Assembly: GCA_021806135.1 (NCBI GenBank)
Contig: JAJZYB010000006.1
Location: forward strand, 7,735 to 71,734
DNA: 64,000 nucleotides
Source: Thermoplasmata archaeon
Lineage (GTDB): Archaea; Thermoplasmatota; Thermoplasmata; Lutacidiplasmatales; UBA184
Direction: 5' to 3'
Shown: positions 7,627-43,204 of the stretch, piece after piece
Position numbering within the stretch: position 1 is the first letter of the stretch
How the letters are laid out: the number at the start of each line of letters is the position of its first letter
Notes under the pieces: generated by a model
Seen by the model: only the letters and a program-made list of their open reading frames with translations
Told to the model about the DNA's origin: nothing
Database searches by the model: none
Program-made: the position numbers and the translations under genes

Positions 7627-8392
7627 TTAGTCGGGTCTGACGTCCATCAAACGCCCTGTGTCTTCCACCCGGGTCGAGCCTCGGACAGACGGTCTTGTCG
7701 CTGCGAGCACGACCCCTCCTGCGAAACCCCCCCGAGCCCCGTGCCTTCGTAGACGGCACCGTCTTGCTCCTGGCCTCCATCGTCGGGCTCCTCTTGGAGG
7801 CGCTGCAGGACCCCAGCCTTCCCGGTCAGTCGGTCGGACAGCGAGGTCAGGTCCTCCGAAGAGGGCCCAGGAACGAGTTCCTTGGTGACCTTGTTCCTCC
7901 TTTCGGCAGGGAGTCTGGAAGGTCGGCATCTTGCCGTCCTCCCTGGAGCGCTTGCGGGCCGCGGACATCGTCACCTTCTGCGAGGGCCGGTGCTTGGCCT
8001 CCTTCCGGTAGATGGTGAGCGTCGTCTCCGGCCCCGTCTTGAGCATCCGCTTCACCGCCGTGCGGGGGAACGACTTCAGATGCAGGTCCCCTTCAATCTC
8101 GGTCGACCGTTGCCGACCTTCTGCCCGCTGTGCTCCGCTCTGGGCACGGGGCGCGCGTAGGAGGCGAGGTGCCCTTGGTTGGAAAACCGGTTGATGGCTT
8201 CGATCTCCGCGAGGATCCCGTTGGCCGAGTAGAAGTTCACCCGGGGGTGATCATCAGGGAGTTGACATCCTTGCGTCCCTGGGTGGCCTTGGCCAGCTCG
8301 ACCTGCATCGCCTCCTCTCGTCGGAGGAGGAGCTCCAGTTGTTCGAGCTGTGCCCTGGGGATGGCCCTTAGGACGCGAGCATCCGTCTCCAT
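7627..8392 (-). pseudogene. IS110-family transposase relic (C-terminal Transposase_20 domain only; two frameshifts; N-terminal DEDD domain missing)
   Basis: Hand translation of the minus strand gives ...RKDVNSLMITPG / VNFYSANGILAEIEAINRFSNQGHLASYARPVPRAEHSGQKVGNGRPRLKG / ...LKTGPETTLTIYRKEAKHRPSQKVTMSAARKRS in three different frames. This matches the IS110 C-terminal consensus (IPGIG..tAa.llAEIGdi.RF.s...LasYAGlvPr..sSGk...g.isKrGn...YerllakGKpkkvAlvAvARKLL). There is no upstream catalytic domain. Confidence 0.6.
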
Positions 8393-8908
8393 TACCCGGG
8401 CATGAATCGTAAGCTCACAAGACCAAGAGTCTTTATACGGGGTTCCTTTTGCCTGTCATGGCGTAGGGCGGCGTGTCGAGCCTTGGCTGAGGGGAGACCC
8501 ACCCAGGCTGCCCGTCTTGACCGGGAAAGCGAATGGCTGAGGGGAATGGACGAAGGGCGGGACACGGAGAGAGTCAACGGGGACCGCCGAGACGATCCTC
8601 GCTGACAGAGGACCAACGACGACACCGGATCAATGAATTGTTCAGGCTGCAGAGCACCATTCAACGGTGGATAGAGGCCTCAGCGGATCGGGAGAAGGTC
8701 TCCGCCCTCATCGGGGTGAACATGTACGTCCAGGGGAGGATCCGGCTCCTGAGCGGAGGGAGGCCGAGAAGTGCCGAGGGAATGTCTGCGCTGGGAAGCC
8801 AACCTGTGACCCTTACCGTATGTCAAAGTCCTCATGGTCAAGAGGGAAGCGGGCAAAGTGTAGAGAGCGCCGGAATGCCAGGGGAACTTCTTCAACAAGG
8901 AAACGAAC

Positions 8909-11900: not shown

Positions 11901-13570
11901 AGACCGCGGTACAGACCAACTTCGCAATCTTCGACCCCACCATAAACCCGACAATGTTCAGTCCAGGAGCTACGGTCGGTTCATTCCTCACGGATTCCTC
12001 AGGAATGTCTGGATTCTGGAAGAACAGTGTGCTAGAGGGACTTGAACCAATAGGGGTTCCTCAGCCCCTGCCGCTGACACCATCTGTGTTCACATTACAG
12101 GCCAGCTACGGGGGCCTCACATCAAACCCAGTCACGGTGGTTGTTGAACCGGAAGGGGGAAACTTCGTGAACAACCTGGCCCTCAACGCTGCTGGTACAG
12201 CTATCACCGGACAGCTCCAATTTGAAGCAATGCCTTGGGTTAGCAGTGTGAATGTTAGCGTAGGTGGTTCACCTGGTCAATACCAAGTGACAAACTTCGT
12301 GGCCAACACTGTAAAGACTGGAGTCATCAACGTAGATCTGACCAGCCTGCCATCGGGCCCGGTCGTCGTCAGCGCCATAGCGACCGGCGCTAACTTGTAC
12401 CCCAGCTTTGGTTGCGGCGGATGGCTGGAATTCCTAACGTGTGGATTCAGTGATACACCAACAAACTACGCGTTACAGTGGCAGGATCCATTGGTGTTCC
12501 TACCAGCAACATTGACTTCTACCGGAACGAGCACGATCGTATCGGGAGACGTAACGCTGTCATACAGTGGAACGGCAGCCGCCCAGGCCACAGGTACATT
12601 GCGACTAGTCTCCGGGCAAGGGACGCAAACCCTGGCCACGGGTATCTCTGGTGCTTACACACTCAATACTGCAACATTGCCTGATGGATGGTACAGCGCT
12701 GTGTATACTGAGACTGGATACGGGACCTCAACTACGAAGACTGTGACATTCTACACGGACAACGTTGCCGAGTCACTGAACTCAACGATCAGTGCTCTAC
12801 AGCAAGAAGTGCAAAGCCAGAAATCTACAATCTCTGACTTGAACGCTGAACTGTCCTCAGACGCTAGCACGATCAGTTCGCTACAAGCGAGTCTCGCATC
12901 TGCGAACGCAAACATTGGAGAGCTGCAAGCCCAAGTGTCCACGCTGCAGGCACAAGTGTCTGGCCTGCAGGGAACCGTCTCTACCCTGAACGGCCAGTTG
13001 GCCTCCGCACAGTCTAGTATCACCTCGTTGCAAGCCCAGGTCGCCTCCCTCAATGTTACAAGTGCGGCCGACGCGAGTTTGATCACACAGCTAAAGGCAG
13101 ATCTGTCTGCGGCTCAGACCACTATTGGGACACAGCGATCCCAGCTGAGCGCTGACCAGGCGACCATAACTTCTGACAACCAGACAATTCAGACACTGCA
13201 GAACGAGCTGGCACAGAGGAAGACCGCAGCGCCACTACCGGCAGCGGCATCCGCTCAGCCCCCAATTTCCATGATGGAGGTGTTGTTAATTGTGATTGCA
13301 GCACTGGCCATTGGTGGTGGAGTTGGGTATGTTCTTGCACGCCGAAGCAAGAAGGAAAACCAGACCGTCGCCCATGCTGGCGAGCCGGTATCTAGGAGGA
13401 TGACGGCGAGCAGCGTTGAGGGGCTCAGCACACTCATGAAGGCGGCCAAGTTACAGAAGACGCTGACATCCCGAGGAAACTACGTCGAAGCGCAAATGGT
13501 GGGGGTTCGTGTCGAGAGCCTCATGAGGGAGATGGGAGTTGACCGGAGCCAGGTTTACAAGACCAACTGA
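8909..13570 (+). CDS. Membrane-anchored sedolisin/kumamolisin-like (S53) serine peptidase with pro-domain, long C-terminal coiled-coil stalk and C-terminal TM anchor
   Basis: Signal peptide; region HFLTAAGVASNFGTSTTQYQATVNYFESYGLSV...LSLQVSGTVAQMDAAFNTQI resembles the pro-kumamolisin activation domain; GGTSFATPIEAGSWALIEE resembles the catalytic-Ser motif; ~300 aa of Q/S/L/A heptad-like repeats (..ISALQQEVQSQKSTISDLNAELSS..LQAQVSTLQAQVSGLQ..) then hydrophobic TM plus RRSKKE; gene is ~50% GC versus ~68% flanking. Confidence 0.55.
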   Translation: MNRKARVRAATAVLVTLIAVVSFSLGGIALPTTTSANTGSTSASSTGAATSVVNTPLAQITPASNTQTSANSPYTVSPAATTNSGHVMSAYIGLSPTSSISAYQQEISNPASPMYRHFLTAAGVASNFGTSTTQYQATVNYFESYGLSVQTSPERLSLQVSGTVAQMDAAFNTQIGAYNIVYKSDGIYNNLFGQSSAVNGTTSNITIYANSVPTYLPSGLDVAGISGVGQNLAQDALALPYNTSASSDFNASQYQRGGLTGNVGYNHAFQVDTNTGAGNYTWTNPTMSPGLGNLLGNTGNYQFLFPSSMPTLMGANNLWSGGTTIASEPDLGQGVTIAVIEVGCPLISDLQQFAQMTFNNSGQITSRLSIIGINNAPSGVSMNTYNQCVNRGFAYGWTLETELDIEYAATMAPDAHIDVIALPTADFTDFFQAYTDIASYLTSGSAVTLPSSVGTVFNSLTGSAGQGVSAAAASISITSNSYGEGELYGLFAGTPVYQILSNETLGTLAIQGVTNFFASGDTSSIGFGSGGPLQAGMFAQSTGVTSVGGGMLTAAGSNGEYPATGNYVYLRSQFGYIFNETVVPASAVASFTYWAEGVSLCFNFIYPGDCFPIIGLGFFAGGGFGVSTTQAQPWWQNALDTYSTGAKIVPVIAGSADFNMSVWAFGGWDQLFGGTSFATPIEAGSWALIEEQSIVAFGNQKFGDINSLLFADHNAQQAGVSSIGTDAFIPMTDLGTGPEPTACNIVAFIAQCIQFWAPGNPFITGLANASSFYPADPNIPSWYATLNNPAGSGWNFLQGLGLPQTDVLDQQIIGQVPSSQHALANEPFAVTEVTSSGDIPFGQLTGGTSYTFQIVQSNGLTGGTFNVQAYDGGLNDGTYGGGTTTTMQVTNGEFTFTPTYAVNAAMPPSASSEYGYFLIGVPGSSAWAFQAFSVVPSAANGTLQLGVQTENGLITSGEAIVQMIGASDPVVGGGGPSYGGLDTVTLNGMPVQDAVVTETAVQTNFAIFDPTINPTMFSPGATVGSFLTDSSGMSGFWKNSVLEGLEPIGVPQPLPLTPSVFTLQASYGGLTSNPVTVVVEPEGGNFVNNLALNAAGTAITGQLQFEAMPWVSSVNVSVGGSPGQYQVTNFVANTVKTGVINVDLTSLPSGPVVVSAIATGANLYPSFGCGGWLEFLTCGFSDTPTNYALQWQDPLVFLPATLTSTGTSTIVSGDVTLSYSGTAAAQATGTLRLVSGQGTQTLATGISGAYTLNTATLPDGWYSAVYTETGYGTSTTKTVTFYTDNVAESLNSTISALQQEVQSQKSTISDLNAELSSDASTISSLQASLASANANIGELQAQVSTLQAQVSGLQGTVSTLNGQLASAQSSITSLQAQVASLNVTSAADASLITQLKADLSAAQTTIGTQRSQLSADQATITSDNQTIQTLQNELAQRKTAAPLPAAASAQPPISMMEVLLIVIAALAIGGGVGYVLARRSKKENQTVAHAGEPVSRRMTASSVEGLSTLMKAAKLQKTLTSRGNYVEAQMVGVRVESLMREMGVDRSQVYKTN

Positions 13571-13583
13571 GTGAACCATTTCG

Positions 13584-13605
13584 GGGGGTCTGAAAAGACC
13601 CCCTT
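13584..13605 (+). terminator. Perfect hairpin immediately after the S53 gene stop (GGGGGTCT-GAAA-AGACCCCC) followed by a T-containing tract
   Basis: Inverted repeat with 8-bp GC-rich stem and GAAA loop 14 nt after the stop codon at 13570. Confidence 0.5.
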
Positions 13606-13882
13606 GACCTTTCCTCCACGGAGGGGTTGAGCAGGGTGGGAGGCGGGTGAGAGCCCGCGTTCTGGTTACTGGGGACCGGGAGGCAGGACCTTGCCGGGAC
13701 CGTCGCGGTGAGTCGGTCGTGGACTCTGAGGGAACCCCTGACTGTGGGGCCCCTCTCTCACTTTCCCCTCCCGGCAGGGGGGAAGGATTGGAGCTTTAGG
13801 CAGATCGCGGGAGGATTCATGGAATGCAGATCCCGTTCAATGGGCAGTCTCCCCGGGAAGCAACCCTTATCCCTGAGGGCCC

Positions 13883-14134
13883 TTGCGCCTTGCTGATATG
13901 GACGGACCCTTGGTCTTCCTCTCCCAGTTCATGGAGCGGAAGGTGGTGGTCCGGCTCAAGGACGCGCGGACCCTGGAAGGCCGCCTCCTGGGGTTCGACG
14001 AGCATCTCAACCTGGTGCTCGACGAGACCTTGGAGCGGAACGACGAGGCGGGTCGCCGTCTGGGACGGGTGGTGGTACGAGGGAACAACGTGCTCGCGCT
14101 GAACGCACCCCCCGGCCCCGGCGCTCCCGCGTGA
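13883..14134 (+). CDS. Sm-like (LSm/SmAP) RNA-binding protein
   Basis: PLVFLSQFMERKVVVRLKDARTLEGRLLGFDEHLNLVLDETLE...RLGRVVVRGNNVLAL matches the archaeal Sm1/Sm2 motifs; start may be the Met at 13898. Confidence 0.8.
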   Translation: MRLADMDGPLVFLSQFMERKVVVRLKDARTLEGRLLGFDEHLNLVLDETLERNDEAGRRLGRVVVRGNNVLALNAPPGPGAPA

Positions 14135-30616: not shown

Positions 30617-31797
30617 ACGGCCCGTTGCGCAGGGTGGCCTTGGTCGGGGGGGGCATCACTCCCTTCGGCGTGCGCGCCGCCACCTTCCCCGAGCTCATCC
30701 AGGAGGCAGGCGCCCGGGGGTTCGGGAGCCTGCCGAACCTCGCGCCGGAGGACGTGGACAGCCTTTTCGTCGGCGCCGCCCAGCCCGAACGGCTGGCCTT
30801 CCAGTCCCACGTGGCCCCCCTGGCGGCGGAACTCCTCGGGCTCACCCCGACCCGGGTGATCCAGCGGACAGAGCTCGCCTGCGCCTCCGGCCAATCGGCG
30901 CTGCGCAGCGCCTACGCCGCCATCGCCTCGGGGCTCTCCGACCTGGCCGTGGTCCTCGGGGTGGAGAAGATGAACCTGCCGGACATGGCGGAGGCGAACA
31001 CCTCCATGGCGGACGTGCTGGACCGTCCCTGGGACGGGGTCCACGGGGCCACGGCCCCTCCCTTCTTCGCCATGGTCGCGCAGCGGCACATGCACGAGTA
31101 CGGCACGACCGAGGAACAGCTCGCCTTGGTCTCGGAAAAGAACCACCGGTTCGCGAACCGGAACCCCACGGCCCAGTTCCAGGGGAAGGTCTTCACCCGG
31201 GAGAAGCTCCGGGGACTCCCGGTGGTGGCCCCTCCCCTCCGGCTGGGGGACTGCTCCTCCATGACCGACGGGGCCGCGCTCGCGGTCCTCGTGGAGGGGT
31301 CCCGGGCGCGGGAGTTCACCGATACGCCGGCCTGGCTGGTGGGAAGCGCCCAGTGCTCGACCTTCCACAACCTCGCCCACGCCGGCTCCCTCTCCTCCTG
31401 GGAGGGGCTGCGGAAGGCGGGCCAGGAGCTCTACCGGAGCTCCGGGCTGGGCCCGAAGGACGTCCAGGTCGCCGAACTGCACGACTGCTTCACCATCTCG
31501 GAGATCGTCGAGTACGAGGAGCTGGGGTTCTGCCCGAAGGGAGAGGGGGGGCGCTTCGTGGAGGAGGGGCAGAGCGACCTCGGCGGACGGGTGACGGTGA
31601 ACCCTCGGGGCGGGCTCCTGGGATGCGGGCATCCGCTCGGCGCCACCGGCGTCGCCCAGGCGGTGGAGATCCTCGGCCAGCTCCAGGGAACGGCCCCCTC
31701 CGGCCGACAGGTCCCCGGTGCCGCGGTGGCCCTCCAGCACAACCTCTCCGGTAGCGCCAACGTCCATTCCCTGCTGCTCTGGCGGAGGGAGAATTGA
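30613..31797 (+). CDS. Archaeal thiolase-like protein (acetyl-CoA C-acetyltransferase/ketoacyl-CoA thiolase family)
   Basis: RVALVGGGITPFG..., Cys active-site region ELACASGQSAL, C-terminal GCGHPLGATG; start overlaps leuB stop. Confidence 0.75.
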   Translation: MNGPLRRVALVGGGITPFGVRAATFPELIQEAGARGFGSLPNLAPEDVDSLFVGAAQPERLAFQSHVAPLAAELLGLTPTRVIQRTELACASGQSALRSAYAAIASGLSDLAVVLGVEKMNLPDMAEANTSMADVLDRPWDGVHGATAPPFFAMVAQRHMHEYGTTEEQLALVSEKNHRFANRNPTAQFQGKVFTREKLRGLPVVAPPLRLGDCSSMTDGAALAVLVEGSRAREFTDTPAWLVGSAQCSTFHNLAHAGSLSSWEGLRKAGQELYRSSGLGPKDVQVAELHDCFTISEIVEYEELGFCPKGEGGRFVEEGQSDLGGRVTVNPRGGLLGCGHPLGATGVAQAVEILGQLQGTAPSGRQVPGAAVALQHNLSGSANVHSLLLWRREN

Positions 31798-32357
31798 CGG
31801 CGAGCACTCCTTCTGGCCAGTCGTCTGGGGCTGGGGGGGATGCCGGGACGACCCTCCCCCGGAGCGACGCGCTCGCCTCCGAGCGCCCTCCCCGTCGGGA
31901 GGAGCCCCCGGACCCCTCTCCACTGACGCTGTTGGACTTCTACCCCCCCCAGGACCCGCGATGGACGCGGATCGCCCCGTTCTTCTTGGCCCTCAAGGAC
32001 GGACGATTCACCACCACCCGGTGCACCCGGGATGGGACATTCCACTGGCCCCCCGCCGTGGCCTGCCCAAAATGTCACCGGGAGGAGCTTCAGTGGGTGG
32101 ACCTGCCCACCCACGGACGGCTCTACGCTTTCAGCGAGGTCCGGGGAGGGGCTCCGCTCGGCATGGAGGGGGGAGTTCCTTTCGTGGTGGGCCTCGTGGA
32201 CCTCCCCGGGGCTCCCCTCCGGCTCTTCAGCCGGATCGTGGGCCGGCCCTATGCCGAGCTTGCCCTGGGGGAGCCGGTCCGGTTCGAGACCTTCCCGATC
32301 CGGGACGGCCGCCTCTTCTACCGGTTCCGCGCGGGTGGGGAGCCGGCCACCCGTTGA
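31794..32357 (+). CDS. DUF35-type OB-fold/zinc-ribbon protein (thiolase/HMG-CoA synthase-associated scaffold protein family)
   Basis: CTRDGTFHWPPAVACPKCH zinc ribbon followed by OB-fold-like segment; immediately downstream of and overlapping the thiolase, as in archaeal thiolase-DUF35 pairs. Confidence 0.65.
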   Translation: MTASTPSGQSSGAGGDAGTTLPRSDALASERPPRREEPPDPSPLTLLDFYPPQDPRWTRIAPFFLALKDGRFTTTRCTRDGTFHWPPAVACPKCHREELQWVDLPTHGRLYAFSEVRGGAPLGMEGGVPFVVGLVDLPGAPLRLFSRIVGRPYAELALGEPVRFETFPIRDGRLFYRFRAGGEPATR

Positions 32358-32472: not shown

Positions 32473-33900
32473 ATGAACGCCATGAGCATGCCCAGAACGA
32501 CCACCCTCGCGCTGGCGGGCCTCCTGCTGCTGGGGATCGCACTTCCCCTGGTGTCGGCGAGCCCCGCCCCCGCGCTGAACCCCTCGAACCCGCCGCAGAC
32601 CTGGGCCTATGGGGGCCAGGGAGTCTTCAACGAAAAGATCTCCACCAGCGGGTTGGTGAACGCCAGCTACACCGTCCATGCGTACCTGGCCTTCAGCGTG
32701 GTCCTGACCCAGACCAACACCACCAACCAGACGTTCACTCTCGAGGCGGTCCGGACGGTGGACCTGAGCTTCTTCGCACAGGGATGTTCGCCCAACTGCG
32801 TCCAGCCCCAGCGGGAGCTCAACGTCTCCCTGATCGGGAGCGAGCGCGACCGGCTCTTCGGGAACTTCACGCTCGCGGGGAACGTCACCGAGAACGGCAC
32901 GCAGGTTCCTGCCCTGGCGATCCTGAACGCCCAGGCGCACCTGGGCGCGAACCTGACCGAGAGGGGCCAATGGACTCTCTCCCGGCTGGGATTCGCCTCC
33001 AACGGGAGCGTCTTCCTGAGCGCCCAACGGGCGGCGCAGGGCAGCCTGGTCTTCTCCCCCGGGCTCGGCCTGGTCCCGCTCAGCCTGTCCCCGGACACCC
33101 ACTGGAACTCCACGAGCGAGTACGCCTCCCAGGGGAACGATTCGGTGGCCTGCCAGTGGTCGGTGGTGCTCGGAAGCCGCAGCAACGCCGGGAACTGCAG
33201 CGCCACCCACCAGCTCCTCTCCAACGGGACCGTCCGCCTGAACGGGGAAGACCGGGGGGCCTCGGGCCTCGTCTTCGGCCATGCGCACGCCCGGGCCCTT
33301 TCCCTCGAGGTGGAAGGGCTTGGGGGATGGCGGAGCACCGACGGGCTCCTCTTCCTCCCGGGGTCCGAGGAACTCTGGGATGACAGCAGCCTCGGGCCGG
33401 TGAGCGCCGGTTTCGCTTCCCTCGCCACCAGTCAGGTGGACTACGAAGGCGGGCTCGGGCACCTGGGGATCATTGCGTCCAGTGCGCTCTACCAAGGCAT
33501 CCTCCCGACCGGGATCCCCGGCGGGGGTGCCGGATCTGCCGCGCCCAGCGCCGCCGTGCTCCCTGCGACCTCACCGGCGTGGACCGTGAACGCGACCCCG
33601 GAGAGCGTCCAGCAGGCCCAGTGCGTGTCGACCGGCTGCGCTCAAGGCACCGCCCCCGGGCCCTCCTACGCGGGAGGGTTCGGGCTTCCGCTGGGGCTGC
33701 TCGCGCTGGCCGGGGCCGGCGCGCTCGCGGGGGTTGTGGCGGCCGTCCTCCTGCTCACCCGCCGGCCGCCTCGGAGCCCGATGGGGGCGTACTCCACCCG
33801 CCCGCCCTCAGCCTTCCTGCTGAACGGACGGATAGCCCCCCCCGCACCAGGCTCGCCCGTCCCTCCGCCGGCGGGGCCGGCCCGGGAGGCTCGGCGCTGA
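32473..33900 (+). CDS. Secreted, tail-anchored surface glycoprotein (hypothetical)
   Basis: Signal peptide MNAMSMPRTTTLALAGLLLLGIALPLVSASPA, ~20 N-x-S/T sequons, C-terminal TM (LGLLALAGAGALAGVVAAVLLL) plus basic residues. Confidence 0.55.
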   Translation: MNAMSMPRTTTLALAGLLLLGIALPLVSASPAPALNPSNPPQTWAYGGQGVFNEKISTSGLVNASYTVHAYLAFSVVLTQTNTTNQTFTLEAVRTVDLSFFAQGCSPNCVQPQRELNVSLIGSERDRLFGNFTLAGNVTENGTQVPALAILNAQAHLGANLTERGQWTLSRLGFASNGSVFLSAQRAAQGSLVFSPGLGLVPLSLSPDTHWNSTSEYASQGNDSVACQWSVVLGSRSNAGNCSATHQLLSNGTVRLNGEDRGASGLVFGHAHARALSLEVEGLGGWRSTDGLLFLPGSEELWDDSSLGPVSAGFASLATSQVDYEGGLGHLGIIASSALYQGILPTGIPGGGAGSAAPSAAVLPATSPAWTVNATPESVQQAQCVSTGCAQGTAPGPSYAGGFGLPLGLLALAGAGALAGVVAAVLLLTRRPPRSPMGAYSTRPPSAFLLNGRIAPPAPGSPVPPPAGPAREARR

Positions 33901-34016: not shown

Positions 34017-34085
34017 CAGGGCCGTTCCCCCGTGACCTGTCGGGACATGGCGTGGTCGCTTCCTCTCGATAAAACAGCTCCAAAG

Positions 34086-34093
34086 TATAAATA
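34086..34093 (+). promoter_or_regulatory. TATA box (TATAAATA) with upstream A-rich BRE-like sequence, ~50 nt upstream of aglB start
   Basis: Only AT-rich octamer in an otherwise ~70% GC intergenic region. Confidence 0.45.
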
Positions 34094-34140
34094 TCGGGTC
34101 GGGTCTCGCGCGCCTCGATCCCCTCTCAGGTTCCAACTTC

Positions 34141-37100
34141 ATGGTCGATTCCATTGATGGCAGCGGGGGGTGGTGGCGACGCCACGGCCTGGTGGTCTTC
34201 CTCCTGGCCCTGGCCGCCTCCATCTCGCTCATCCTCCGGGTCCTGTACTCCTACCAGCTGATCTCCACCTGTGACGTCTACTATTGCTTCGCCGGGGGAT
34301 CGGACTCCTTCTACCACGCCCGGGTGATGCAGTACATCATCACCTACCACACGAACCTCATCCACGACGCGGCGCTGAACTACCCGTTGGGCTACACCAA
34401 CCCCCGGGAACCGCTGTTCGACTGGATGAACGCCATCTTCGGGATCCTGCTCGCCCCGTTCTTCGGCGGGAACGCGGTCCAGGCGGGAATGTGGGTCCTC
34501 GAGATGCAGCCGGCGATATGGGCCGCCCTCGGGGTCTTCCCCGTCTACCTGCTGGGGAAGGAGGTCTCGTCCCGGCGGATGGGGGTCGTCGCCGCCCTCC
34601 TCTTCCCCCTCATCGTGGGGAACATGGAGAGCACGGTGGCGACCTATGCCAATTACCTGTCCTTCTACGCGTTCTTCGTGGTCCTTTCCCTGGCCCTCTT
34701 CATCCATACGGCCAAGCTCGCGGGGACCCGCCGCTGGGTGGAGAGCTACCGGTCCCCCCGGGCGGTCTGGGCGGGGCTGAAGGCGTTCGCCCGGACCGAG
34801 GAGATGTCCGTCCGCTGGGCGGTCCTCACCGGCGTCACCCTGGGCGCCACCATGCTCGCCTGGCAGGGGTATACCTACGTGGTGGCCGTGGTGGTGATCT
34901 TCCTGGCCGTCGTCCTGGTGGTGGAACGCATCCGGGGCCTGGACTCCTTCGGCCTCTACGTGGTGACGCTCATCGTGGGCACCGTGGGCTTCCTCATGGC
35001 CATGCCCTACTACTACATCCAGGGGGACTTCGGGTACTGGTTCACCGTCCCGCTCTTCCTCTGGTTCGGCGGGCTGTTGGTGCTCCTGCCCTTCCTCTTC
35101 CTGAGGAACGCCCCCTGGGTGGTCTCCGTGCCTGCGCTCTTCCTCTCCGTCCTGGCCGCGGCCGGGGGCCTCTACCTGTACAACCCCGCGTACTTCAGCG
35201 CGGTGCTCACCGGGCAGGGCTACTTCATCAAGAGCCTCATCTACTCCACCGTCGCCGAGGCGCAGGCCCCGAGCTTCGACGCGCTCATCGTGAGCTACGG
35301 GGTGCTCACCTTCTTCCTGGCCTTCGCGGGGCTTGCGCTGTTCCTCTACTATCTCTACGCCCACCGGTTCCGCCGGGAGCACGTCTTCATGGTGATCTTC
35401 AGCCTGCTGGGGATCTACCTCCCGGTCTCGGCGGCGAAGTTCTTCCTCTTAGGATCGCCGGTCTTCGCCCTCCTCCCGGCGGAGGTCGTCCTGGTGGGGA
35501 TCGACCGGCTGGGCCTCCCGCAGATGCGCCGGAACTTCGCCTCCCTCGGGGGAAGGGGGAACCGCTGGCTCGCCCTCCGCCGCTCGGTGAAGCTCCGTCA
35601 CGTGGCGGTGGGCCTCATCCTGATCGCGCTCCTGCTCCCGAACGTCTGGTATGCCACGGACGCGGCCATCCCCTACAACGTGAAGGCCCAGTACAACCAG
35701 CAGGTCTACAACTCGCTTCCGCCGGGGCTGAGGGCCTCTCCCGCGAATGCCACCTCCGCCTACTTCGGCGCCGCGGGGATCCAGGTGGACACTCCCACCC
35801 AGTATGACGAGAGCGGGTACAATTGGTTGGCCCAGCAGGATACGAACATCCTGCCGATCAGTTCGCGTCCCGCCTTCATCAGTTGGTGGGATTACGGGTT
35901 CCAGGCGCTGGATCAGGGCCAGCATCCCACGGTCGCCGACAACTTCCAGGATGGGATCGACCCTTCCGGTAATTTCCTGCTGGCCCAGAACGAGTCAGCC
36001 GCCATCGGGGTCATGGCGGCGGACCTCCTCTACGCCGAGGCCCAGACCTCCGGGAAGCCGTACCTCCCGGCCGCTTTGAACGCGCAACTGGCCAACGACA
36101 ACGTGAACTTGACCCTGCTTCACGCCTACCTGGCCAACCAGACCGCCGACGTGAGGATCGTCCTGGGGAACCCGAACCTCTACGGACCGTTCAACCCTGC
36201 CACCATCAGCCCACTGAGCGCCATGTACAACGTGGTCTCCATCTTCCTGGCCTCCAGCCTCTCGGAGAACCAGGTGGTGAAGGTCTACCAGGACGTCCAG
36301 GCCTACACGGGCTGGAGCATCCGTTACGCCATGTCCAACAGCCTGCTCTTCCCCTCGTCCGGGAGCAACACGGGGATCTTCTACGCCCCGGCGGACCTCA
36401 CCGGCCGGGTGATCAGCTCCGGGGGCATCCCCACGGGATTCTTCCAGGTGACGGTCCTCGGCACGGACGGGAACACCTACATCCTCGGCCAGCAACCCCC
36501 CGGCGTGGGCGTGGCCTCCTACAACATCAGCTACGCCCCCTCGTTCTTCAACAGCATGATCTACCGCTTCTTCGCCGGGTACAACGGGACCGACATCGGT
36601 GCCGGGGCCGGCATCCCCGGGCTGTCGAGCTCGCTGTCGAACTACCAGCCCGAGCCCGGCTGGATGATGCAGCACTTCATGGTGGGGTACCGGACGGCCT
36701 ACTGGTGCCCCTACAAGGACTACCAGGCGCATCCCAACTGCTTCGTCGCGGTGAACTACCAGCAGGCGCTGGCCTACCAGACCGCGGGGATCGGGACGGT
36801 GGACCTCTCGCCGACCTCGTATTACAGCAACGGCGAGACGATCATGGAATACTACCCCGGGGCGACGGTGGTCGGGTCGGTCCGGCTGGCCGACGGGAAG
36901 CCCGCCCCGGGTCTCCGGGTCACCGTGCTGGACCAGTACGGCACCCCCCACATGACCGTCACCACCAACGCCCTGGGCGGCTACTCCCTCATCGCCCCGC
37001 CGGGCCCGGTCTCGGTGGTGGTGAGCTACGGGGCGCTCGACCCGCTCACGCAGGAGGGGGCCTACGTGGTGGCGGAGCAGAACCTCACGATCACCCAGGC

Positions 37101-40100
37101 CCAGGCCTACCAGACGGACCCGGCCCCGGTGCCGGTGAGCTTCTCGCTGCCGTCGAGCACGGTGAGCGGACAGGTCTACTTCAACGAGGCCCGCACGAAC
37201 GCCTTCGCCTCGAACGACACGATCCTTCCGCTCGCCCCGGTCCTCCTGGCGAGCACCACCGGCGGGCTCACCTACCGGGGGACGACCGATGCGAGCGGAT
37301 TCTTCCAGTTCGGCGATGTGGCGCCGGGAAGCTACGCGCTCCAGGTGAAGGTGGGCTCCACCCTGGTGAACTACACCACCGTCGACGTGAGCCGGGGGGG
37401 CCCCATCACCGAGAGCGTCGGTCTCGCCCCCGGCCGGGTCATCGGACAGGTGGTCTCTCGCACCGGCCTGCCCGTCGGCTCCGCCACGGTGAGCCTCGTC
37501 TCTGTGACGAATGGCTCGGTCCGTTCGTTCGTGACGAACGGGACGGGCAACTTCTCCTTCACTCCGTTGGCGCCCGGGAACTACTCCCTCCGGGCCAGCG
37601 TCCCCGGGGGTCTCTCCTCGACGCCGTTGAGGCTCTCCGTGACCAAACTGGGGACCAACCTCACGGAGACCCTCACCGTGGAGGTGCCGGTGACCGTGAC
37701 CCTCTCGGTCGACTACCACGGCTTCCCCCTGCCCAACGTGCCGGTCCGCTTCACCCCCCTGGGGACGGTGAGCAATTCCACCAGCACCGCCAACCAGTCC
37801 TACCTCTTCTTCTCCAACGGCGGCGGGACGATCACCGCCCAGGTCCCCGAGGGGAACTGGTCGGTCTACGCGCTAGCGGCCGTGAACGGGACCTACGTGG
37901 CCGGCATGGGGAACCTCCTGCTGACGGCAGGGCCGGCTTCCGGCTACGCTGGGACCCTGTCCCTCCTCCCCGCGGGTCTGCTCTCCGGCTCCACCTATAT
38001 TGCGGGTACGCCGGCTCCCGAGGGAGGGGTCACCCTCCTCATCCAGAGCGCGCAGGGAGCTGTCCTCCCCGCCTACTCGAACGCCTCCGGCCGCTACCAG
38101 CTCTATCTTCCGGTGGGCAGCTACACGTTCCTCGCAAGCTATCCGGGCACGAGCCCCCTGTCCAAGGTGGCCCTGGGGGGAGTGACCCTTGGTACCTCCC
38201 CGCTCACCCTCAACCTGGACCTGGGGAGCGGGTTCTCCTTCGTCCCCCAGGTGGGCTACCTCAACGCCACCGGTGCCTTCTCTCCCCTTCCGGGGGCCCG
38301 GGTGAACCTCACGGCCCAACCGGGCTCCACCCTCCAGCTCCTCACGGGAGGGGCGGGGAACCTGACCGTCCGGCTACCCCTGGGGAACGTCACCTACTCG
38401 GTCAGCGTCAGCGCACCGGGCTTCCTGTCCTACGCGCGGACGGACCTCACTCCCTCCACCCTCAGCGGGATCAGCCGGGTGACCCTCACCCCGGCCCCGG
38501 TGCCGGTGGCGATCTACGGGCCCGGGCTGCCGGCGGGTTCGAGCCTTCCGCAGTTCAACGTGACCTATCTCCTAAGCGGAGCGACCGTCGATGCGCGGGG
38601 GAACCCGGCAAACTTCTCGCTGGCCCCGGGGAGCTACGTCATCAACGGGTACGCGACCGGCCCGGGCTCCAACCGGACGGTCTACCGGCCCCTGGCCGCT
38701 GTGCCGTTGACCGTGCCGCTGGGCTCCCCGGGGATCACCGTGACGGCCTACCTCTACCCCCAGCGGACGTACGTGGGCAACCTCACGGGCACCTCGCTCG
38801 GCAACGGAACGCTCAACCGGGCCTCCGTGAAGGTCTATGGCCAGCCTGGGAACCTCACCTTCAGTGGGGTGCAGTTCCGGACGAGCTTCCTTGCCCCACC
38901 GGGGAACTATACCATCTGGGCCACCACCCAGGGGCTGTCCGGTTCGTACGCCTTCTTCGGGAACGTGACACTCCTGTCGAACGGCACCCTCTCCCCACGC
39001 CAGCTCAACCTCTCCCGGGCCGGGAGCCTGACGGCGAGACTCCAGACGCTGGGGGGAGTCGCCGTGAACCGGAGCCTTTCGGTCACGGTCCAGGACCTCT
39101 CGGGGGGCTCGGTGGACCTCCGCACTACGGGTAGCGGAGGCCTCGACCTGGTCCTGCCGGCGGGAACCTATCGCTTCCGGGTGAATGCCACCGCTGCGTG
39201 GGCCCCTTCCGGCCCGGCACGGAACTTCACGTTCCAGACGGTGGGGAACGTCACCTGCACGGTGGTGGTCGGGGGCCAGAACTCCAATTGCACGGTCCCG
39301 GTCTCCGCCTCGCTTGCCACCACCACGGTGGACCTGGGATTCCGCGTGGGATCGGCGACACCAGCGGGCTACGGCACCCTCTGGGTCTCCCCCCTGGGCC
39401 AGAACGCTTCGGCCCCCCGGCGCTACTCCGTCGCCAGCACGGGGGTCGCCCTCTCCCTGATCCCGGGAACGTATCGCCTCTACGGTGTCCTGGACGCCTC
39501 CGGGGTGCCCTTGGCGGGGTTCGGGAACCTCACCGTTCCCTACTCCCCGGTGCCCGTGGCCTCCACGCTCTCCTTGGGTCCGGGCTGGACGCAGGTGATC
39601 TCGATCTCCTCTCCGTCGGGCCTGCCGACTCCCTCCGGGGTGAACGTCACCCTCACGGGAGCGGGTACGGCCGGAGGGCTGGCCCTGGGGAAGTACCCCT
39701 GGGGCACCCCGGTGACCCTGGTCCTCCCCTCCGGCTCGTTCTCGGTGAGCCTTACCGCGGTGGTGGCCCCCTACGGCCCGGCCGTGAACCTCACCCGGAC
39801 GTTGAGCCTGACGGTGGCGAGCTCCAACGGGGCCGAGTCCACGTCGCTCTCCCCCGACTACTTCCCCTCCGCGAGCCTCACGTCGTTGGGCCCGACGAGC
39901 CTCACCGCGCTCACCGGGAACGCGTTGAGCGTTCCCCTGGTGGTCCGGAACACGGGTAACCAGGTGCTGAACCTGACCATGAACGGGACTCCATCGAACT
40001 GGGCGATCCGCTTCTCCCCGGGCAACTTCACGCTGGTCCCGGGTGGCACCCAGGCCGTGGAGGCAGAGGTCTTAGTGCCCGCCAATGCGCTCTCCACCCA

Positions 40101-40716
40101 TGCACCGGTGATCCTCTCCCTCTACTCCCGCCCGCTGACGAACGCATCCCTGGCCCAGTACACGGTGCCGTTGACCCTGATCCCGGTCTACGCGGTGGTG
40201 GGGGGGGAGGAGCCGGCCTCGGTCACCGTCTCCTCCACCAGCGTCTACCTCCCGTTCTACGTGGGAGGGGCGGGGAACACCCCGAGCACGGTCAGCATCG
40301 CGGTGGCGAACGGGGCGGTCCTTTACCAGGACGGATGGAACTACCAGATCACCACCAGCTCCGGCGGGACCTTGCCCGGCGCGTTCACCGTGACGCCGGG
40401 CGCTTCTCCGCAGCAGGCCCAGTTCCGACTGCTGGCCAGGACCTCCGCTCCCATCCTGCCCGGCGCGGTGCTGCTCTACGTGCAGGACCTCACGTTCCCG
40501 GGAGCCAGTATCACCCTGCGTCTCCAGCTCCCCTCGGCCACTCCCCTGGCGTTGAACAACAGTCTCGCCGTGACGGGGCCCTCCGTGGGCGGTCAGCCGC
40601 CGGCCGCGTACCTGCCCGTGGCCTACGCTCTGATCTCGGTGGCCCCGGCGATCGCCATCGTGGCCCTGGCCCTGGTCTACCGTTGGCGCAAGCACCGGAG
40701 GTGGGTGCGTCGATGA
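34141..40716 (+). CDS. aglB: Archaeal oligosaccharyltransferase AglB (STT3 homologue) with ~1300-aa C-terminal extension of tandem CarboxypepD_reg/Ig-like domains and terminal TM anchor
   Basis: ~13 TM N-terminal domain with DSFYHAR (D-x-x-Y-x-x-R loop motif) and the catalytic WWDYG motif (FISWWDYGFQALD). Then >=8 repeats of the G.V....G.P..GA.V.L........TT...G.Y.L....G.Y pattern. Ends in VAPAIAIVALALVYRWRKHRRWVRR. Confidence 0.8.
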   Translation: MVDSIDGSGGWWRRHGLVVFLLALAASISLILRVLYSYQLISTCDVYYCFAGGSDSFYHARVMQYIITYHTNLIHDAALNYPLGYTNPREPLFDWMNAIFGILLAPFFGGNAVQAGMWVLEMQPAIWAALGVFPVYLLGKEVSSRRMGVVAALLFPLIVGNMESTVATYANYLSFYAFFVVLSLALFIHTAKLAGTRRWVESYRSPRAVWAGLKAFARTEEMSVRWAVLTGVTLGATMLAWQGYTYVVAVVVIFLAVVLVVERIRGLDSFGLYVVTLIVGTVGFLMAMPYYYIQGDFGYWFTVPLFLWFGGLLVLLPFLFLRNAPWVVSVPALFLSVLAAAGGLYLYNPAYFSAVLTGQGYFIKSLIYSTVAEAQAPSFDALIVSYGVLTFFLAFAGLALFLYYLYAHRFRREHVFMVIFSLLGIYLPVSAAKFFLLGSPVFALLPAEVVLVGIDRLGLPQMRRNFASLGGRGNRWLALRRSVKLRHVAVGLILIALLLPNVWYATDAAIPYNVKAQYNQQVYNSLPPGLRASPANATSAYFGAAGIQVDTPTQYDESGYNWLAQQDTNILPISSRPAFISWWDYGFQALDQGQHPTVADNFQDGIDPSGNFLLAQNESAAIGVMAADLLYAEAQTSGKPYLPAALNAQLANDNVNLTLLHAYLANQTADVRIVLGNPNLYGPFNPATISPLSAMYNVVSIFLASSLSENQVVKVYQDVQAYTGWSIRYAMSNSLLFPSSGSNTGIFYAPADLTGRVISSGGIPTGFFQVTVLGTDGNTYILGQQPPGVGVASYNISYAPSFFNSMIYRFFAGYNGTDIGAGAGIPGLSSSLSNYQPEPGWMMQHFMVGYRTAYWCPYKDYQAHPNCFVAVNYQQALAYQTAGIGTVDLSPTSYYSNGETIMEYYPGATVVGSVRLADGKPAPGLRVTVLDQYGTPHMTVTTNALGGYSLIAPPGPVSVVVSYGALDPLTQEGAYVVAEQNLTITQAQAYQTDPAPVPVSFSLPSSTVSGQVYFNEARTNAFASNDTILPLAPVLLASTTGGLTYRGTTDASGFFQFGDVAPGSYALQVKVGSTLVNYTTVDVSRGGPITESVGLAPGRVIGQVVSRTGLPVGSATVSLVSVTNGSVRSFVTNGTGNFSFTPLAPGNYSLRASVPGGLSSTPLRLSVTKLGTNLTETLTVEVPVTVTLSVDYHGFPLPNVPVRFTPLGTVSNSTSTANQSYLFFSNGGGTITAQVPEGNWSVYALAAVNGTYVAGMGNLLLTAGPASGYAGTLSLLPAGLLSGSTYIAGTPAPEGGVTLLIQSAQGAVLPAYSNASGRYQLYLPVGSYTFLASYPGTSPLSKVALGGVTLGTSPLTLNLDLGSGFSFVPQVGYLNATGAFSPLPGARVNLTAQPGSTLQLLTGGAGNLTVRLPLGNVTYSVSVSAPGFLSYARTDLTPSTLSGISRVTLTPAPVPVAIYGPGLPAGSSLPQFNVTYLLSGATVDARGNPANFSLAPGSYVINGYATGPGSNRTVYRPLAAVPLTVPLGSPGITVTAYLYPQRTYVGNLTGTSLGNGTLNRASVKVYGQPGNLTFSGVQFRTSFLAPPGNYTIWATTQGLSGSYAFFGNVTLLSNGTLSPRQLNLSRAGSLTARLQTLGGVAVNRSLSVTVQDLSGGSVDLRTTGSGGLDLVLPAGTYRFRVNATAAWAPSGPARNFTFQTVGNVTCTVVVGGQNSNCTVPVSASLATTTVDLGFRVGSATPAGYGTLWVSPLGQNASAPRRYSVASTGVALSLIPGTYRLYGVLDASGVPLAGFGNLTVPYSPVPVASTLSLGPGWTQVISISSPSGLPTPSGVNVTLTGAGTAGGLALGKYPWGTPVTLVLPSGSFSVSLTAVVAPYGPAVNLTRTLSLTVASSNGAESTSLSPDYFPSASLTSLGPTSLTALTGNALSVPLVVRNTGNQVLNLTMNGTPSNWAIRFSPGNFTLVPGGTQAVEAEVLVPANALSTHAPVILSLYSRPLTNASLAQYTVPLTLIPVYAVVGGEEPASVTVSSTSVYLPFYVGGAGNTPSTVSIAVANGAVLYQDGWNYQITTSSGGTLPGAFTVTPGASPQQAQFRLLARTSAPILPGAVLLYVQDLTFPGASITLRLQLPSATPLALNNSLAVTGPSVGGQPPAAYLPVAYALISVAPAIAIVALALVYRWRKHRRWVRR

Positions 40717-41555
40717 GCTGGCGTCCCGCGCCCGCCCGGGCCCTTCTCGTGCTCAGTGTGCTGCTCTTCGCCGGTCTGGTCCCGGTCGGGCTCGGGGCGG
40801 CCGCCCCCCCCTCTCCGGGGTCCGCTCCGGTCTCCGGGGCGTCGAACCCGCTCACCGCCCATCTGACCGGTCCGTCGGTGCTCGCGCTCAAGGGGACGGG
40901 GGCATTCTACATGGTGGCCTTCAACGGCACCGCCGTGAACACCTCCGGCCTGGTGGGGAACTATACGTTCACCACCCAGCTGCTCGGGCCGAACACCACG
41001 GGAGCCTTCGTCCAACCCCCGTCAGGGGCCTTCGCCACGAACAACCAGACCTTCACGGTCGGGTCCATCAGTTCCACCGGCACCTACACCCTGGCCGTCT
41101 CCCTGACCTCCCACGGCCCGTCGGGGAACGAGACGGCGAACTTCACCAAGACCTTCCAGGTGGTGACCCCTTACCTCCTCACCGCCACGGTGTACAACCC
41201 GGGCAACCGGACCGTGACGGGGGCTTCGGTGGAGGTCCTCCTGGACGGGAACTTCCTGGGCAGCGCCGGGCTCACGTCGCTCGCCCCCCTCACCCACGCC
41301 ACCTTCACCTACAACTACACCACCCTCGGTCTCTCTCCCGGCGAACACACCTTCACCCTGGTGATCCAGTCCGTGCCCGGGCTCCTGGTCTTCTCCGGAG
41401 GGAGCCATTCGGTGAGCGTCAGCTTCTACGTGCAGGCGCCCGCCGCCAACTATACCCTGGACTGGGAGGCGGGGATCGTCCTCGCGCTGCTGGCCATCTT
41501 TATATCGGTCATGATCGTGGTGCCCCGCCGCTCCCGCTCCCGGAAGAATCCATGA
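40713..41555 (+). CDS. Secreted, tail-anchored surface glycoprotein (hypothetical), translationally coupled to aglB
   Basis: Signal peptide, ~10 sequons in 280 aa, C-terminal TM + RRSRSRKNP; ATG overlaps aglB stop. Confidence 0.55.
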   Translation: MSWRPAPARALLVLSVLLFAGLVPVGLGAAAPPSPGSAPVSGASNPLTAHLTGPSVLALKGTGAFYMVAFNGTAVNTSGLVGNYTFTTQLLGPNTTGAFVQPPSGAFATNNQTFTVGSISSTGTYTLAVSLTSHGPSGNETANFTKTFQVVTPYLLTATVYNPGNRTVTGASVEVLLDGNFLGSAGLTSLAPLTHATFTYNYTTLGLSPGEHTFTLVIQSVPGLLVFSGGSHSVSVSFYVQAPAANYTLDWEAGIVLALLAIFISVMIVVPRRSRSRKNP

Positions 41556-43097: not shown

Positions 43098-43204
43098 GGC
43101 CGGGATGGGGTAGTTTGGTTATCCTGGGGGACTGTGGATCCCTCGACCCGGGTTCAAAGGGAGCGGGGGACCACCCCCCGCTCCGGAGAATCTCGGTCCC
43201 GGCC
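43098..43204 (+). tRNA. tRNA-His (anticodon GUG) with encoded G-1 and a ~32-nt intron in the T-loop (between positions ~59/60)
   Basis: Hand fold: G-1, acceptor GCCGGGA/TCCCGGC, discriminator C73. D-arm GGGT-AGTTTGGTTA-TCCT. Anticodon stem GGGGA/TCCCT with loop CTGTGGA (U33, G34U35G36, G37). Variable CGAC. T-stem CCGGG/CTCGG with loop TTCAAA|T, which is restored only after removing GGGAGCGGGGGACCACCCCCCGCTCCGGAGAA (43159..43190), itself a perfect hairpin. Confidence 0.6.

Follow-up and report, generated by a model that had tools for sequence, protein, structure and literature searches.

A giant AglB-type oligosaccharyltransferase gene with a predicted doubly anchored ectodomain and an overlapping partner gene in Thermoplasmatota

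The window analysed here is a 64,000-nucleotide stretch of contig JAJZYB010000006.1 (positions 7,735–71,734 of the forward strand) from a Thermoplasmata archaeon (GenBank assembly GCA_021806135.1, lineage Lutacidiplasmatales). Near its middle lies one uninterrupted open reading frame (ORF) of 2191 codons with an ATG start, which encodes a giant AglB, that is, a member of the STT3 family of oligosaccharyltransferases (OSTs). The AglB stop codon overlaps the start of a second gene, whose small membrane protein is called the partner below (Table 1). A sequence-only reading of the window had proposed that a single 2191-residue protein fuses AglB to an array of more than 1300 residues and to a second membrane anchor, and all tests run bore out this architecture. 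The ORF has no internal stop and shows no sign of a frameshift. Its in-frame G+C content at third codon positions (GC3) is 0.82–0.98 across all 6.6 kb and switches frame only past position 40716; this continuity speaks against a frameshift and against two genes having been fused. A second, independent metagenome contig in the ENA encodes the identical 2191-residue protein, and among 5.8 billion proteins searched, full-length homologues numbered well over 100 (2167–2231 aa, 40–88% identity, 98–100% coverage). Upstream of the gene, the TATA-like box AAGTATAAATAT is a putative archaeal promoter.

The first 898 residues form the catalytic part. The Pfam STT3 model (PF02516) matched aa 45–455 with 29.2 bits (cut-off 24.5), and the AglB_core-like model matched weakly around the WWDYG motif. 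The best NCBIfam match was TIGR04154 (archaeo_STT3; aa 20–627, E = 1e-56), which at 192.7 bits did not reach its curated cut-off of 450. A phmmer search against PDB sequences found AglB-L of Archaeoglobus fulgidus (AfAglB-L; E = 6e-7). The AlphaFold model of aa 1–1100 had a mean predicted local distance difference test score (pLDDT) of 78 and a predicted TM-score (pTM) of 0.70, and contained about 13 membrane helices and an alpha/beta core. Foldseek ranked AfAglB-L first for this model (7e9s, E = 5.5e-26, TM-score 0.67), followed by human and yeast STT3 and then by PglB. The STT3 assignment of the sequence-only reading was thereby confirmed at the level of both profile and predicted structure.

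Motif conservation was read from a 121-sequence alignment of the family. The first catalytic motif, GGSD55S-x-Y-H-x-R (of the form D-x-x-Y-x-x-R, with D55, Y58 and R61), is invariant or nearly so, as are R146 and the N617-E-S sequon. In external loop 5 (EL5), T370, A372 and E373 do not vary in the family and V371 hardly does; the motif that they form falls into a low-pLDDT loop of the AlphaFold model (358–377), as expected for the mobile EL5. Within WWDYG (aa 582–586), all residues are invariant except Y585, which is nearly so, and the motif was found in nearly all members of the wider giant-AglB clade. Both D-x-x-Y-x-x-R and WWDYG had been named as hallmarks from the sequence alone, and both are family-conserved. 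In PglB, the first acidic residue at the start of external loop 1 (EL1) is D56, and the Glu of the TIXE/SVSE-type motif of EL5 is E319. D55 aligns with D47 of AfAglB-L (GGND47P), and D55, R146, E373 and WWD correspond to the catalytic residues D47, R154 and E360 and the WWD motif of that enzyme (PMC7226087). At the place expected for the Ser/Thr-pocket motif (DK/MI), the family has D733-S-R-L...I746, a candidate counterpart by position in the alignment. Among the large regions of the protein, column conservation is highest in the membrane domain and the core, at 0.72–0.73. Because of this conservation we judge the enzyme to be probably active, with an altered metal site in the subfamily to which the window protein belongs.

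The altered site is the second metal-binding motif, in external loop 2 (EL2), which reads D-x-D/E in PglB and STT3. By alignment, the window protein does not have the canonical D-x-D/E/H there and carries N171-Y-L173 instead. In AfAglB-L this motif is D161-x-H163, and its role is given in the same study (PMC7226087). N171-Y-L173 is invariant in the subfamily, and Y-A-N-Y-L also occurs in the nearest sister groups. Most of the wider giant clade keeps D-H-D at this position (G-F-x-D-H-D), and other branches have GRMHTPE, GGYDD or ADWDA. Glu90, within NPREPLFDWMN of EL1 (34408–34410), is invariant in the N-Y-L subfamily and specific to it. The N-Y-L motif may reflect a rewired metal site or a reduced activity. 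With D-H-D, N-Y-L and other variants in one orthologous family, the clade is a natural experiment on the catalytic metal site.

Beyond the core, the chain continues as an extension of thirteen domains of two kinds. Pfam CarboxypepD_reg (PF13620) matched five stretches (E = 1e-39, 135.1 bits against a cut-off of 32.3), and the iterated search with jackhmmer delimited about ten units between aa 903 and 1790. When thirteen segments were compared by hhalign, D1–D11 formed one family, while D12 and D13 matched each other at 96% probability and were unrelated to D1–D11. Pfam scans of D12–D13 in ten homologues gave only NEW3/HYDIN-Ig, below threshold. AlphaFold modelled aa 1001–2191 as all-beta with a mean pLDDT of 86, followed by a disordered stretch and a 28-residue helix. 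The beta-sandwich array expected from the sequence alone was confirmed, with a confidently predicted fold of its repeats; the earlier count of at least eight units was too low, the total being 11 + 2 = 13. A Foldseek search of the extension against the PDB returned only generic multi-immunoglobulin (Ig) proteins, such as alpha-2-macroglobulins, pilins and ciliary proteins, at a TM-score of ~0.1, and no specific relative. Across the family the array keeps a fixed length and a fixed order of domains, and the alignment with the enzyme of Aciduliprofundum is collinear; it is not a variable repeat stalk.

The extension is rich in N-x-S/T sequons, as had been noticed before: aa 901–2150 contain 41, against 12.5 ± 3.1 in shuffled sequence, and none was found in the transmembrane domain. 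Across the family, the extension has 30–49 sequons, and 27 positions in the whole protein (22 of them in the extension) are common to half or more of the sequences. Thr, Ser, Gly, Ala and Val are abundant in the extension and Lys, Asp and Glu very scarce, and two Cys pairs are conserved. Sequon excess, composition and Cys pairs fit an extracellular, heavily glycosylated chain. Because the extension is so rich in sequons, the protein is probably a substrate of glycosylation itself, a suggestion of the sequence-only reading that we retain.

The second anchor proposed at the C-terminus is supported by a hydropathy maximum at aa 2160–2178, by the AlphaFold helix (2157–2184) and by the basic tail RWRKHRRWVRR. 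In the family consensus, V-T-G-P-S-V-G is followed by about 10 residues, by L-x-F-V-P-A-x-A in the transmembrane helix and by R-W-W-R-T-R-R-W-x-R-R-COOH. No segment of the protein is more conserved than this 11-residue tail, whose column conservation is 0.85 compared with 0.73 for the catalytic membrane domain. By the positive-inside rule the tail should be cytoplasmic, in agreement with what is known of AglB, whose C-terminal domain lies outside.

In Haloferax, PGF-CTERM-type signals mark S-layer glycoproteins for cleavage and lipid anchoring. No PGF motif was found in the window protein or its subfamily, and the sorting-domain hidden Markov models (HMMs) of NCBIfam gave no match to its last 64 residues even at E ≤ 10. 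A regular-expression search of the six-frame translation of the 64 kb found the Arg/Trp tail on AglB only; there is no sign here of a general sorting tag, 64 kb being a small sample. No archaeosortase gene was found among the scanned genes of the window. Several distant giants (P0184, P0241, P0185, P0190, P0194 and P0243; 2350–2680 aa; L085 6001–13988) have P-G-F-type ends. Among them, P0184 and P0241 exceed the cut-offs curated for the Loki-CTERM or Heimdall-CTERM models and stay below that of PGF_CTERM. It is odd that, in these distant members, an OST should itself be a candidate substrate of an archaeosortase.

Table 1. Features of the giant AglB locus (positions in the window; aa, residues of the encoded protein; TM, transmembrane)
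Feature	Position	Strand	Basis
AT-rich TATA-like box AAGTATAAATAT	34083..34094	+	read from sequence; ~50 nt 5' of the AglB ATG, in a 70% GC background
Giant AglB gene, 2191 aa	34141..40716	+	ORF, translation, uniform GC3, full-length homologues
N-terminal multi-pass membrane domain, aa 1–510, ~13 TM helices, GT-C fold	34141..35670	+	Pfam STT3, hydropathy, AlphaFold, Foldseek
First catalytic motif GSD55SFYHAR	34297..34323	+	aligned to AfAglB GGNDPWYY; D55 invariant in family
Y-A-N171-Y-L173 at the second metal-motif position (aa 169–173)	34645..34659	+	alignments
T-V-A-E373, TIXE-type motif in EL5	35248..35259	+	family alignment
Extracellular catalytic core, aa 511–898	35671..36834	+	WWDYG at 35884–35898; conserved N617-E-S sequon at 35989–35997
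D1–D11, eleven tandem CarboxypepD_reg/transthyretin-like domains, aa ~899–1894	36835..39822	+	Pfam, jackhmmer, AlphaFold, hhalign; boundaries approximate
D12–D13, second-type Ig-like domains, aa ~1896–2132, weakly NEW3/CARDB-like	39826..40536	+	hhalign, Pfam below threshold
Linker, aa 2133–2156, conserved TGPSVG end of D13 then low-pLDDT stretch	40537..40608	+	alignment, AlphaFold
C-terminal TM helix, aa 2157–2184, conserved Pro2169	40609..40692	+	hydropathy 2.44, AlphaFold helix, alignment
Arg/Trp tail RWRKHRRWVRR, predicted cytoplasmic	40681..40713	+	alignment; family consensus RWWRTRRWxRR-COOH
Partner gene, 280 aa: signal peptide, two Ig-like domains (second CARDB), 10 sequons, C-terminal TM helix, basic tail	40713..41555	+	

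The ATG of the partner gene overlaps the TGA of AglB in the tetranucleotide ATGA at 40713–40716, and the partner thus appears to be translationally coupled to AglB. Its conservation was counted at 60 loci that had a complete giant AglB and enough downstream sequence. A detectable partner homologue lies directly after the AglB stop at 51 of these, and a further eight have an ORF of the same size and layout there, giving 59 of 60; the last locus is a frameshifted assembly. The 4-nt ATGA overlap is present in at least 41 of the 60, and partner length ranges from 245 to 292 aa. Coupling extends to DHVE2, to Methanomassiliicoccales and to a PGF-type member, and P0184 keeps an overlapping downstream gene of 274 aa. 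The sequence-only reading had noted neither the partner gene nor the loss of the second metal-binding motif. According to Pfam, 29 of 33 partners contain CARDB; at sequence level these scans gave only CARDB/Ig matches and no homologue of Ost1, Wbp1, Swp1 or Ost3/6. A search of PDB sequences with the partner profile likewise found small CARDB-like proteins only, and no OST subunit.

The partner profile also matches the last domain and transmembrane helix of longer AglBs, at E values of 1e-5 to 1e-11. In P0208, P0209, P0219 and P0223 (2500–2775 aa; L086), the CARDB-like domain and transmembrane end match at about 1e-9 to 1e-11, and P0247, of the same long class, matches at 4e-5. In P0208 at least, no partner-sized gene lies downstream. 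The partner may have arisen from the AglB C-terminus or have been absorbed into it. In P0175 (2667 aa), a PGF-type end (PVPGFDG...AGRRG) runs into the signal peptide and full length of a partner (residues 2340–2667, E = 1.8e-27), so that this protein is either a natural AglB–partner fusion or the product of a one-base assembly error at the ATGA overlap.

The distribution of the giant form was assessed in two ways. An exhaustive, profile-free search with aa 1–900 against 1.84 billion cluster representatives (E ≤ 1e-30) returned 280 clusters, most of them 2000–2780 aa long, and nearly all complete members end with a transmembrane helix and basic residues. In addition, a scan of one genome per GTDB species turned up 434 relatives, of which the best 80 loci were examined in detail. 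These 80 loci come from Thermoplasmata metagenome-assembled genomes (MAGs), including Candidatus Lutacidiplasma silvani, and from DHVE2, Methanomassiliicoccales and Candidatus Saliniplasma; nearly all their complete ORFs encode 2070–2323 aa, in genomes of 32–72% GC. Aciduliprofundum sp. MAR08-339, whose name resembles that of a cultured strain, has a 2081-aa member on a 1.44 Mb contig, collinear with the window protein over aa 13–1329 and again further on. The 69% GC of the window and its closest relatives agree with the Lutacidiplasmatales, for which a GC content of about 69% and genomes of 2.1 Mb have been described (PMC9287336). Characterised AglBs are 754–1054 aa long (PMC5131992). The architecture, called unusual in the sequence-only reading, is indeed so against these enzymes, but the 280 clusters and the GTDB loci make it the standard form within Thermoplasmatota.

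Two GTDB loci, L016 and L038, have a broken giant AglB ORF. At L016 the RW-rich tail turns up again in a downstream ORF, and at L038 the partner gene still lies ~6.4 kb downstream of the AglB start; both breaks are probably frameshift errors of the MAGs and not truly split genes.

A class of shorter AglBs of 1100–1220 aa (P0239, P0245, P0252, P0255, P0259–P0264 and P0266) has a core 31–33% identical to that of the window protein, an orthologue of D1 (E = 1e-17) and about two more CarboxypepD_reg-like domains, with no C-terminal transmembrane helix. This class suggests a stepwise growth of the extension, of which it may be an intermediate stage.

These sequences are public and machine-annotated, under varying names. 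The JGI labels are STT3 or dolichyl-(di)phosphooligosaccharide-protein glycotransferase. At the NCBI most are called 'carboxypeptidase regulatory-like domain-containing protein', with an occasional 'peptide transporter', 'glycosyltransferase family 39' or 'STT3 domain-containing protein', and such labels hide the OST of these genomes. A full-text search of openly accessible literature found no published account of the architecture: neither the length of the giant AglB nor its second anchor, its partner or its altered motif is described there.

The neighbourhood of the gene is housekeeping and syntenic, and is not a glycosylation island. Upstream are genes for homocitrate-synthase-like, aconitase and isopropylmalate/isocitrate dehydrogenase proteins, followed by a thiolase and a DUF35 gene; EF-1beta and YdjM lie downstream. 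The thiolase and its putative DUF35/OB-fold partner (30619–32357, +) are directly upstream of the AglB region and are found there in distant relatives as well. The DUF35 assignment rests on loci L001–L003, to whose DUF35 gene the window ORF 31794–32357 should correspond. In archaea, the thiolase–DUF35 pair acts at the start of the mevalonate pathway, from which isoprenoids and hence dolichol carriers derive; its adjacency to AglB may be coincidental.

Just 5' of AglB, positions 32473–33900 (+) encode a 475-aa protein (likely start MNAMSMPRTT) with a signal peptide, 14 sequons, a C-terminal transmembrane helix and a basic tail, in which Pfam recognised no domain. A sequon-rich membrane-anchored protein is thus encoded on either side of AglB. 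At a similar place, L003 has a 499-aa protein without a Pfam match, separated by an acetyltransferase gene; L001 has none. Elsewhere in the window, an 880-aa protein (2943–5585, −) combines a phosphoesterase domain with six CarboxypepD_reg domains (E = 9e-62). Its array indicates that this domain type is a general extracellular module of the organism, beyond AglB.

Positions 8001–14000 have a GC content of 54–57% within a genome of ~69% and may be a horizontally acquired island. They are nearly filled by a 1553-aa ORF (8909–13570, +) with a pro-kumamolisin activation domain near its N-terminus and a long coiled-coil-like region near aa 1275–1440. An Rfam scan of the window found no RNA family, including no rRNA in 8001–14000. 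The only tRNA in the window, tRNA-His (GTG) at 43099–43188 (+), is 90 nt long, more than the standard length, and may carry an archaeal intron.

What the analysis firmly supports is an AglB-family protein that has a fixed ectodomain of 13 domains, a second anchor and a coupled partner gene, and that is conserved in much of Thermoplasmatota. Taken as a whole, the locus most likely encodes the working OST of these organisms, in a giant form typical of much of Thermoplasmatota. The explanation that we favour, with moderate confidence, is that of an active, self-glycosylated enzyme with a built-in, doubly anchored ectodomain and an accessory partner, in which the scaffold is structural. The catalytic part would transfer a dolichol-phosphate-linked glycan to the Asn of N-x-S/T sequons in proteins emerging at the outer face of the membrane. 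Outside the cell, its chain would go on through 13 beta-sandwich domains in fixed order, with a contour of ~50 nm at a rough 4 nm per domain, and would return to the membrane through the single C-terminal helix, leaving the Arg/Trp tail in the cytoplasm. The result would be an arch or loop anchored at both ends, with a reach of at most 25 nm. The extension, with its ~40 sequons, would be heavily N-glycosylated, in cis or by neighbouring copies. The partner, as a small type-I membrane glycoprotein, would most likely associate with the distantly related C-terminal module of AglB. Together, the extension and the partner would make a glycan-coated structural scaffold that embeds the enzyme in the envelope or spaces it from it, with no part in the chemistry. 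The sequence-only reading had suggested that the protein may be S-layer-associated or spacer-bearing.

Several observations weigh against this explanation. N171 and L173 stand where AfAglB-L has its metal ligands D161 and H163 and where the clade mostly has D-H-D. In the region that corresponds in position to the Ser/Thr pocket, N733 and L735 (36337–36345) of the window protein and its closest relatives replace the D733 and R735 of at least 90% of the family. The interdomain arrangement of aa 1001–2191 is predicted with low confidence, at a pTM of 0.42; such a value fits beads on a string. The partner matches the D12–D13–transmembrane module of the window protein itself only weakly (hhalign E = 5e-4, probability 31%); we keep this likeness to D13 and the helix, as a hint only, in view of the clear match of the partner profile to the C-terminal module of longer AglBs. 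Finally, the proposed role of the scaffold is drawn from anatomy only.

The nearest competitor, which we hold to be rather unlikely, gives the extension, the C-terminal helix and the partner a share in catalysis, as accessory elements of a two-component OST. These elements would hold nascent chains or the lipid-linked glycan, or would dock to the Sec translocon, playing a part like that of Ost1/ribophorin I, Wbp1/OST48 and Swp1 around eukaryotic STT3. The nearly universal coupling of the partner gene should yield roughly equal amounts of the two proteins, and a tail more conserved than the catalytic domain suggests a specific contact. A fixed number and order of domains suits a defined assembly better than an elastic stalk, and the pTM of 0.70 for aa 1–1100 suggests that D1–D2 are packed on the core in a defined way. 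One AglB–partner fusion and the homology of the partner to the AglB C-terminal module point in the same direction. However, neither the PDB profile search nor Pfam revealed sequence similarity between the partner and OST subunits, the extension matches generic Ig-like arrays only, and the resemblance to the eukaryotic OST is topological only. An extended version seems to us doubtful: a self-scaffolded two-component OST complex in much of Thermoplasmatota that serves substrate access or translocon coupling, is an independent counterpart of the eukaryotic OST and has the N-Y-L metal site in the Lutacidiplasma-like branch.

We consider it improbable that the extension is a separate surface-glycoprotein precursor, released or re-anchored by proteolysis or archaeosortase-type processing to become an S-layer-like or glycocalyx protein, in which case the fusion would only ensure co-expression and efficient glycosylation. 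Such a fate would suit the PGF-CTERM-, Loki-CTERM- or Heimdall-CTERM-type ends of some distant members, two of them above cut-offs; the Thr/Ser/Gly-rich, charge-poor composition, which resembles that of acid-stable surface proteins; a weak fold match to SlaB (Foldseek rank 29, aa 1–1100 model); and the sequon-rich membrane-anchored proteins on either side of AglB. Against it, the window protein and its subfamily are without the PGF-type motif and any sorting-HMM match, no archaeosortase was seen in the window, and no conserved cleavage motif was seen at the junction of core and D1. A protein linked to an enzyme would also be unlikely to attain the abundance of an S-layer, and the strongly conserved cytoplasmic tail argues that the helix remains in place.

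It is more improbable still that members of the N-Y-L subfamily are dead pseudo-oligosaccharyltransferases, which have kept the fold, lost metal-dependent transfer and act as a sequon- or glycan-binding scaffold while another enzyme glycosylates. Throughout the subfamily, N171 and L173 stand in place of the two canonical metal ligands of EL2; the Pfam STT3 model matches with a low 29 bits, and TIGR04154 remains far below its cut-off. But D55, R146, TVAE373, WWDYG and long flanking stretches are invariant among sequences that are 40–50% identical, and the conservation of motifs, membrane domain and core gives a pattern that fits selection on catalysis. Other branches of the clade also differ in their EL2 motif, an Asn is still able to bind a metal ion through its carbonyl oxygen, and no second STT3 gene was seen within the 64-kb window.

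To an assembly or annotation artefact, in which AglB and surface-protein genes were joined by a frameshift or a chimeric contig, we give practically no credence: frameshifted or read-through versions exist in occasional assemblies (L016, L038 and P0175), but the same 2070–2323-aa ORF recurs in dozens of independent MAGs, on long contigs and in the genome of a named strain, and this reading was rejected on these GTDB loci together with the GC3 continuity, the more than 100 full-length homologues and the identical independent copy.

Our preferred reading, an active giant OST with a structural scaffold and an accessory partner, touches on a wider picture. Archaeal and bacterial OSTs are treated as single-subunit enzymes of about 600–1050 aa, and the multi-subunit OST is regarded as a eukaryotic, at most Asgard-linked, development. 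A phylum-wide, doubly anchored AglB of 2000–2800 aa, with its own acceptor sites and a coupled membrane protein, challenges this single-subunit picture and would mean that STT3 has gained accessory architecture elsewhere in Archaea as well. It also bears on how the envelope is built in Thermoplasmatota, many of which do not have a classical cell wall. Both Aciduliprofundum and Methanomassiliicoccales have cultured members, and since the family includes a genome named as an Aciduliprofundum strain and Methanomassiliicoccales, these questions are open to experiment.

Among known systems, the closest is the structurally characterised AfAglB-L (PDB 3WAJ, 3WAK, 5GMY and 7E9S). Common to it and the window protein are the GT-C domain of ~13 transmembrane helices, the extracellular core and, in the alignment, the first acidic and TIXE-type motifs, WWDYG, a conserved Arg and the N-E-S sequon; sequence similarity is low. 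AfAglB-L is ~870 aa long and ends after the core, whereas in the window protein the core is followed by 13 beta-sandwich domains and a second anchor, and its gene by a coupled partner gene; N171/L173 stand in place of D161/H163. The 1100–1220-aa relatives stand in between, with ~3 extra domains and no C-terminal helix, compared with 13 domains and an anchor. The model TIGR04154 is named 'oligosaccharyl transferase, archaeosortase A system-associated', and ~580 of its 831 positions are matched; some distant giants have PGF-CTERM-type ends, unlike the window protein, which is without a PGF-CTERM signal.

Likenesses in overall layout reach beyond AglB. SlaB of Sulfolobus and the haloarchaeal S-layer glycoprotein with PGF-CTERM also have a heavily N-glycosylated, charge-poor beta-sandwich ectodomain and a C-terminal transmembrane helix or sorting signal, but they are non-enzymes anchored at one end only, and the window protein has no known sorting signal. 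NOMO, of the translocon-associated BOS complex of the endoplasmic reticulum, is similarly a long string of transthyretin-like domains with one C-terminal transmembrane helix. The BOS complex was a weak fold match (Foldseek rank 37, aa 1–1100 model), and weak Pfam matches to the NOMO and EMC7 domain models recur in the giant-AglB family; the NOMO-specific ones all lie below curated cut-offs (for example 12.9 against 27 bits) and reflect a shared fold class only. In contrast to the giant AglB, NOMO is not fused to an enzyme. The eukaryotic OST, in which STT3 is joined by Ost1/ribophorin I, Wbp1/OST48 and Swp1/ribophorin II, shares with the giant AglB and its partner an extracytoplasmic beta-sandwich mass and extra single transmembrane helices with short basic cytoplasmic tails, one of which comes from a separate type-I protein. 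No homology to its subunits was detected for the extension or the partner, and the extra mass here is mostly part of the same polypeptide; the likeness between the two enzymes is possibly convergent.

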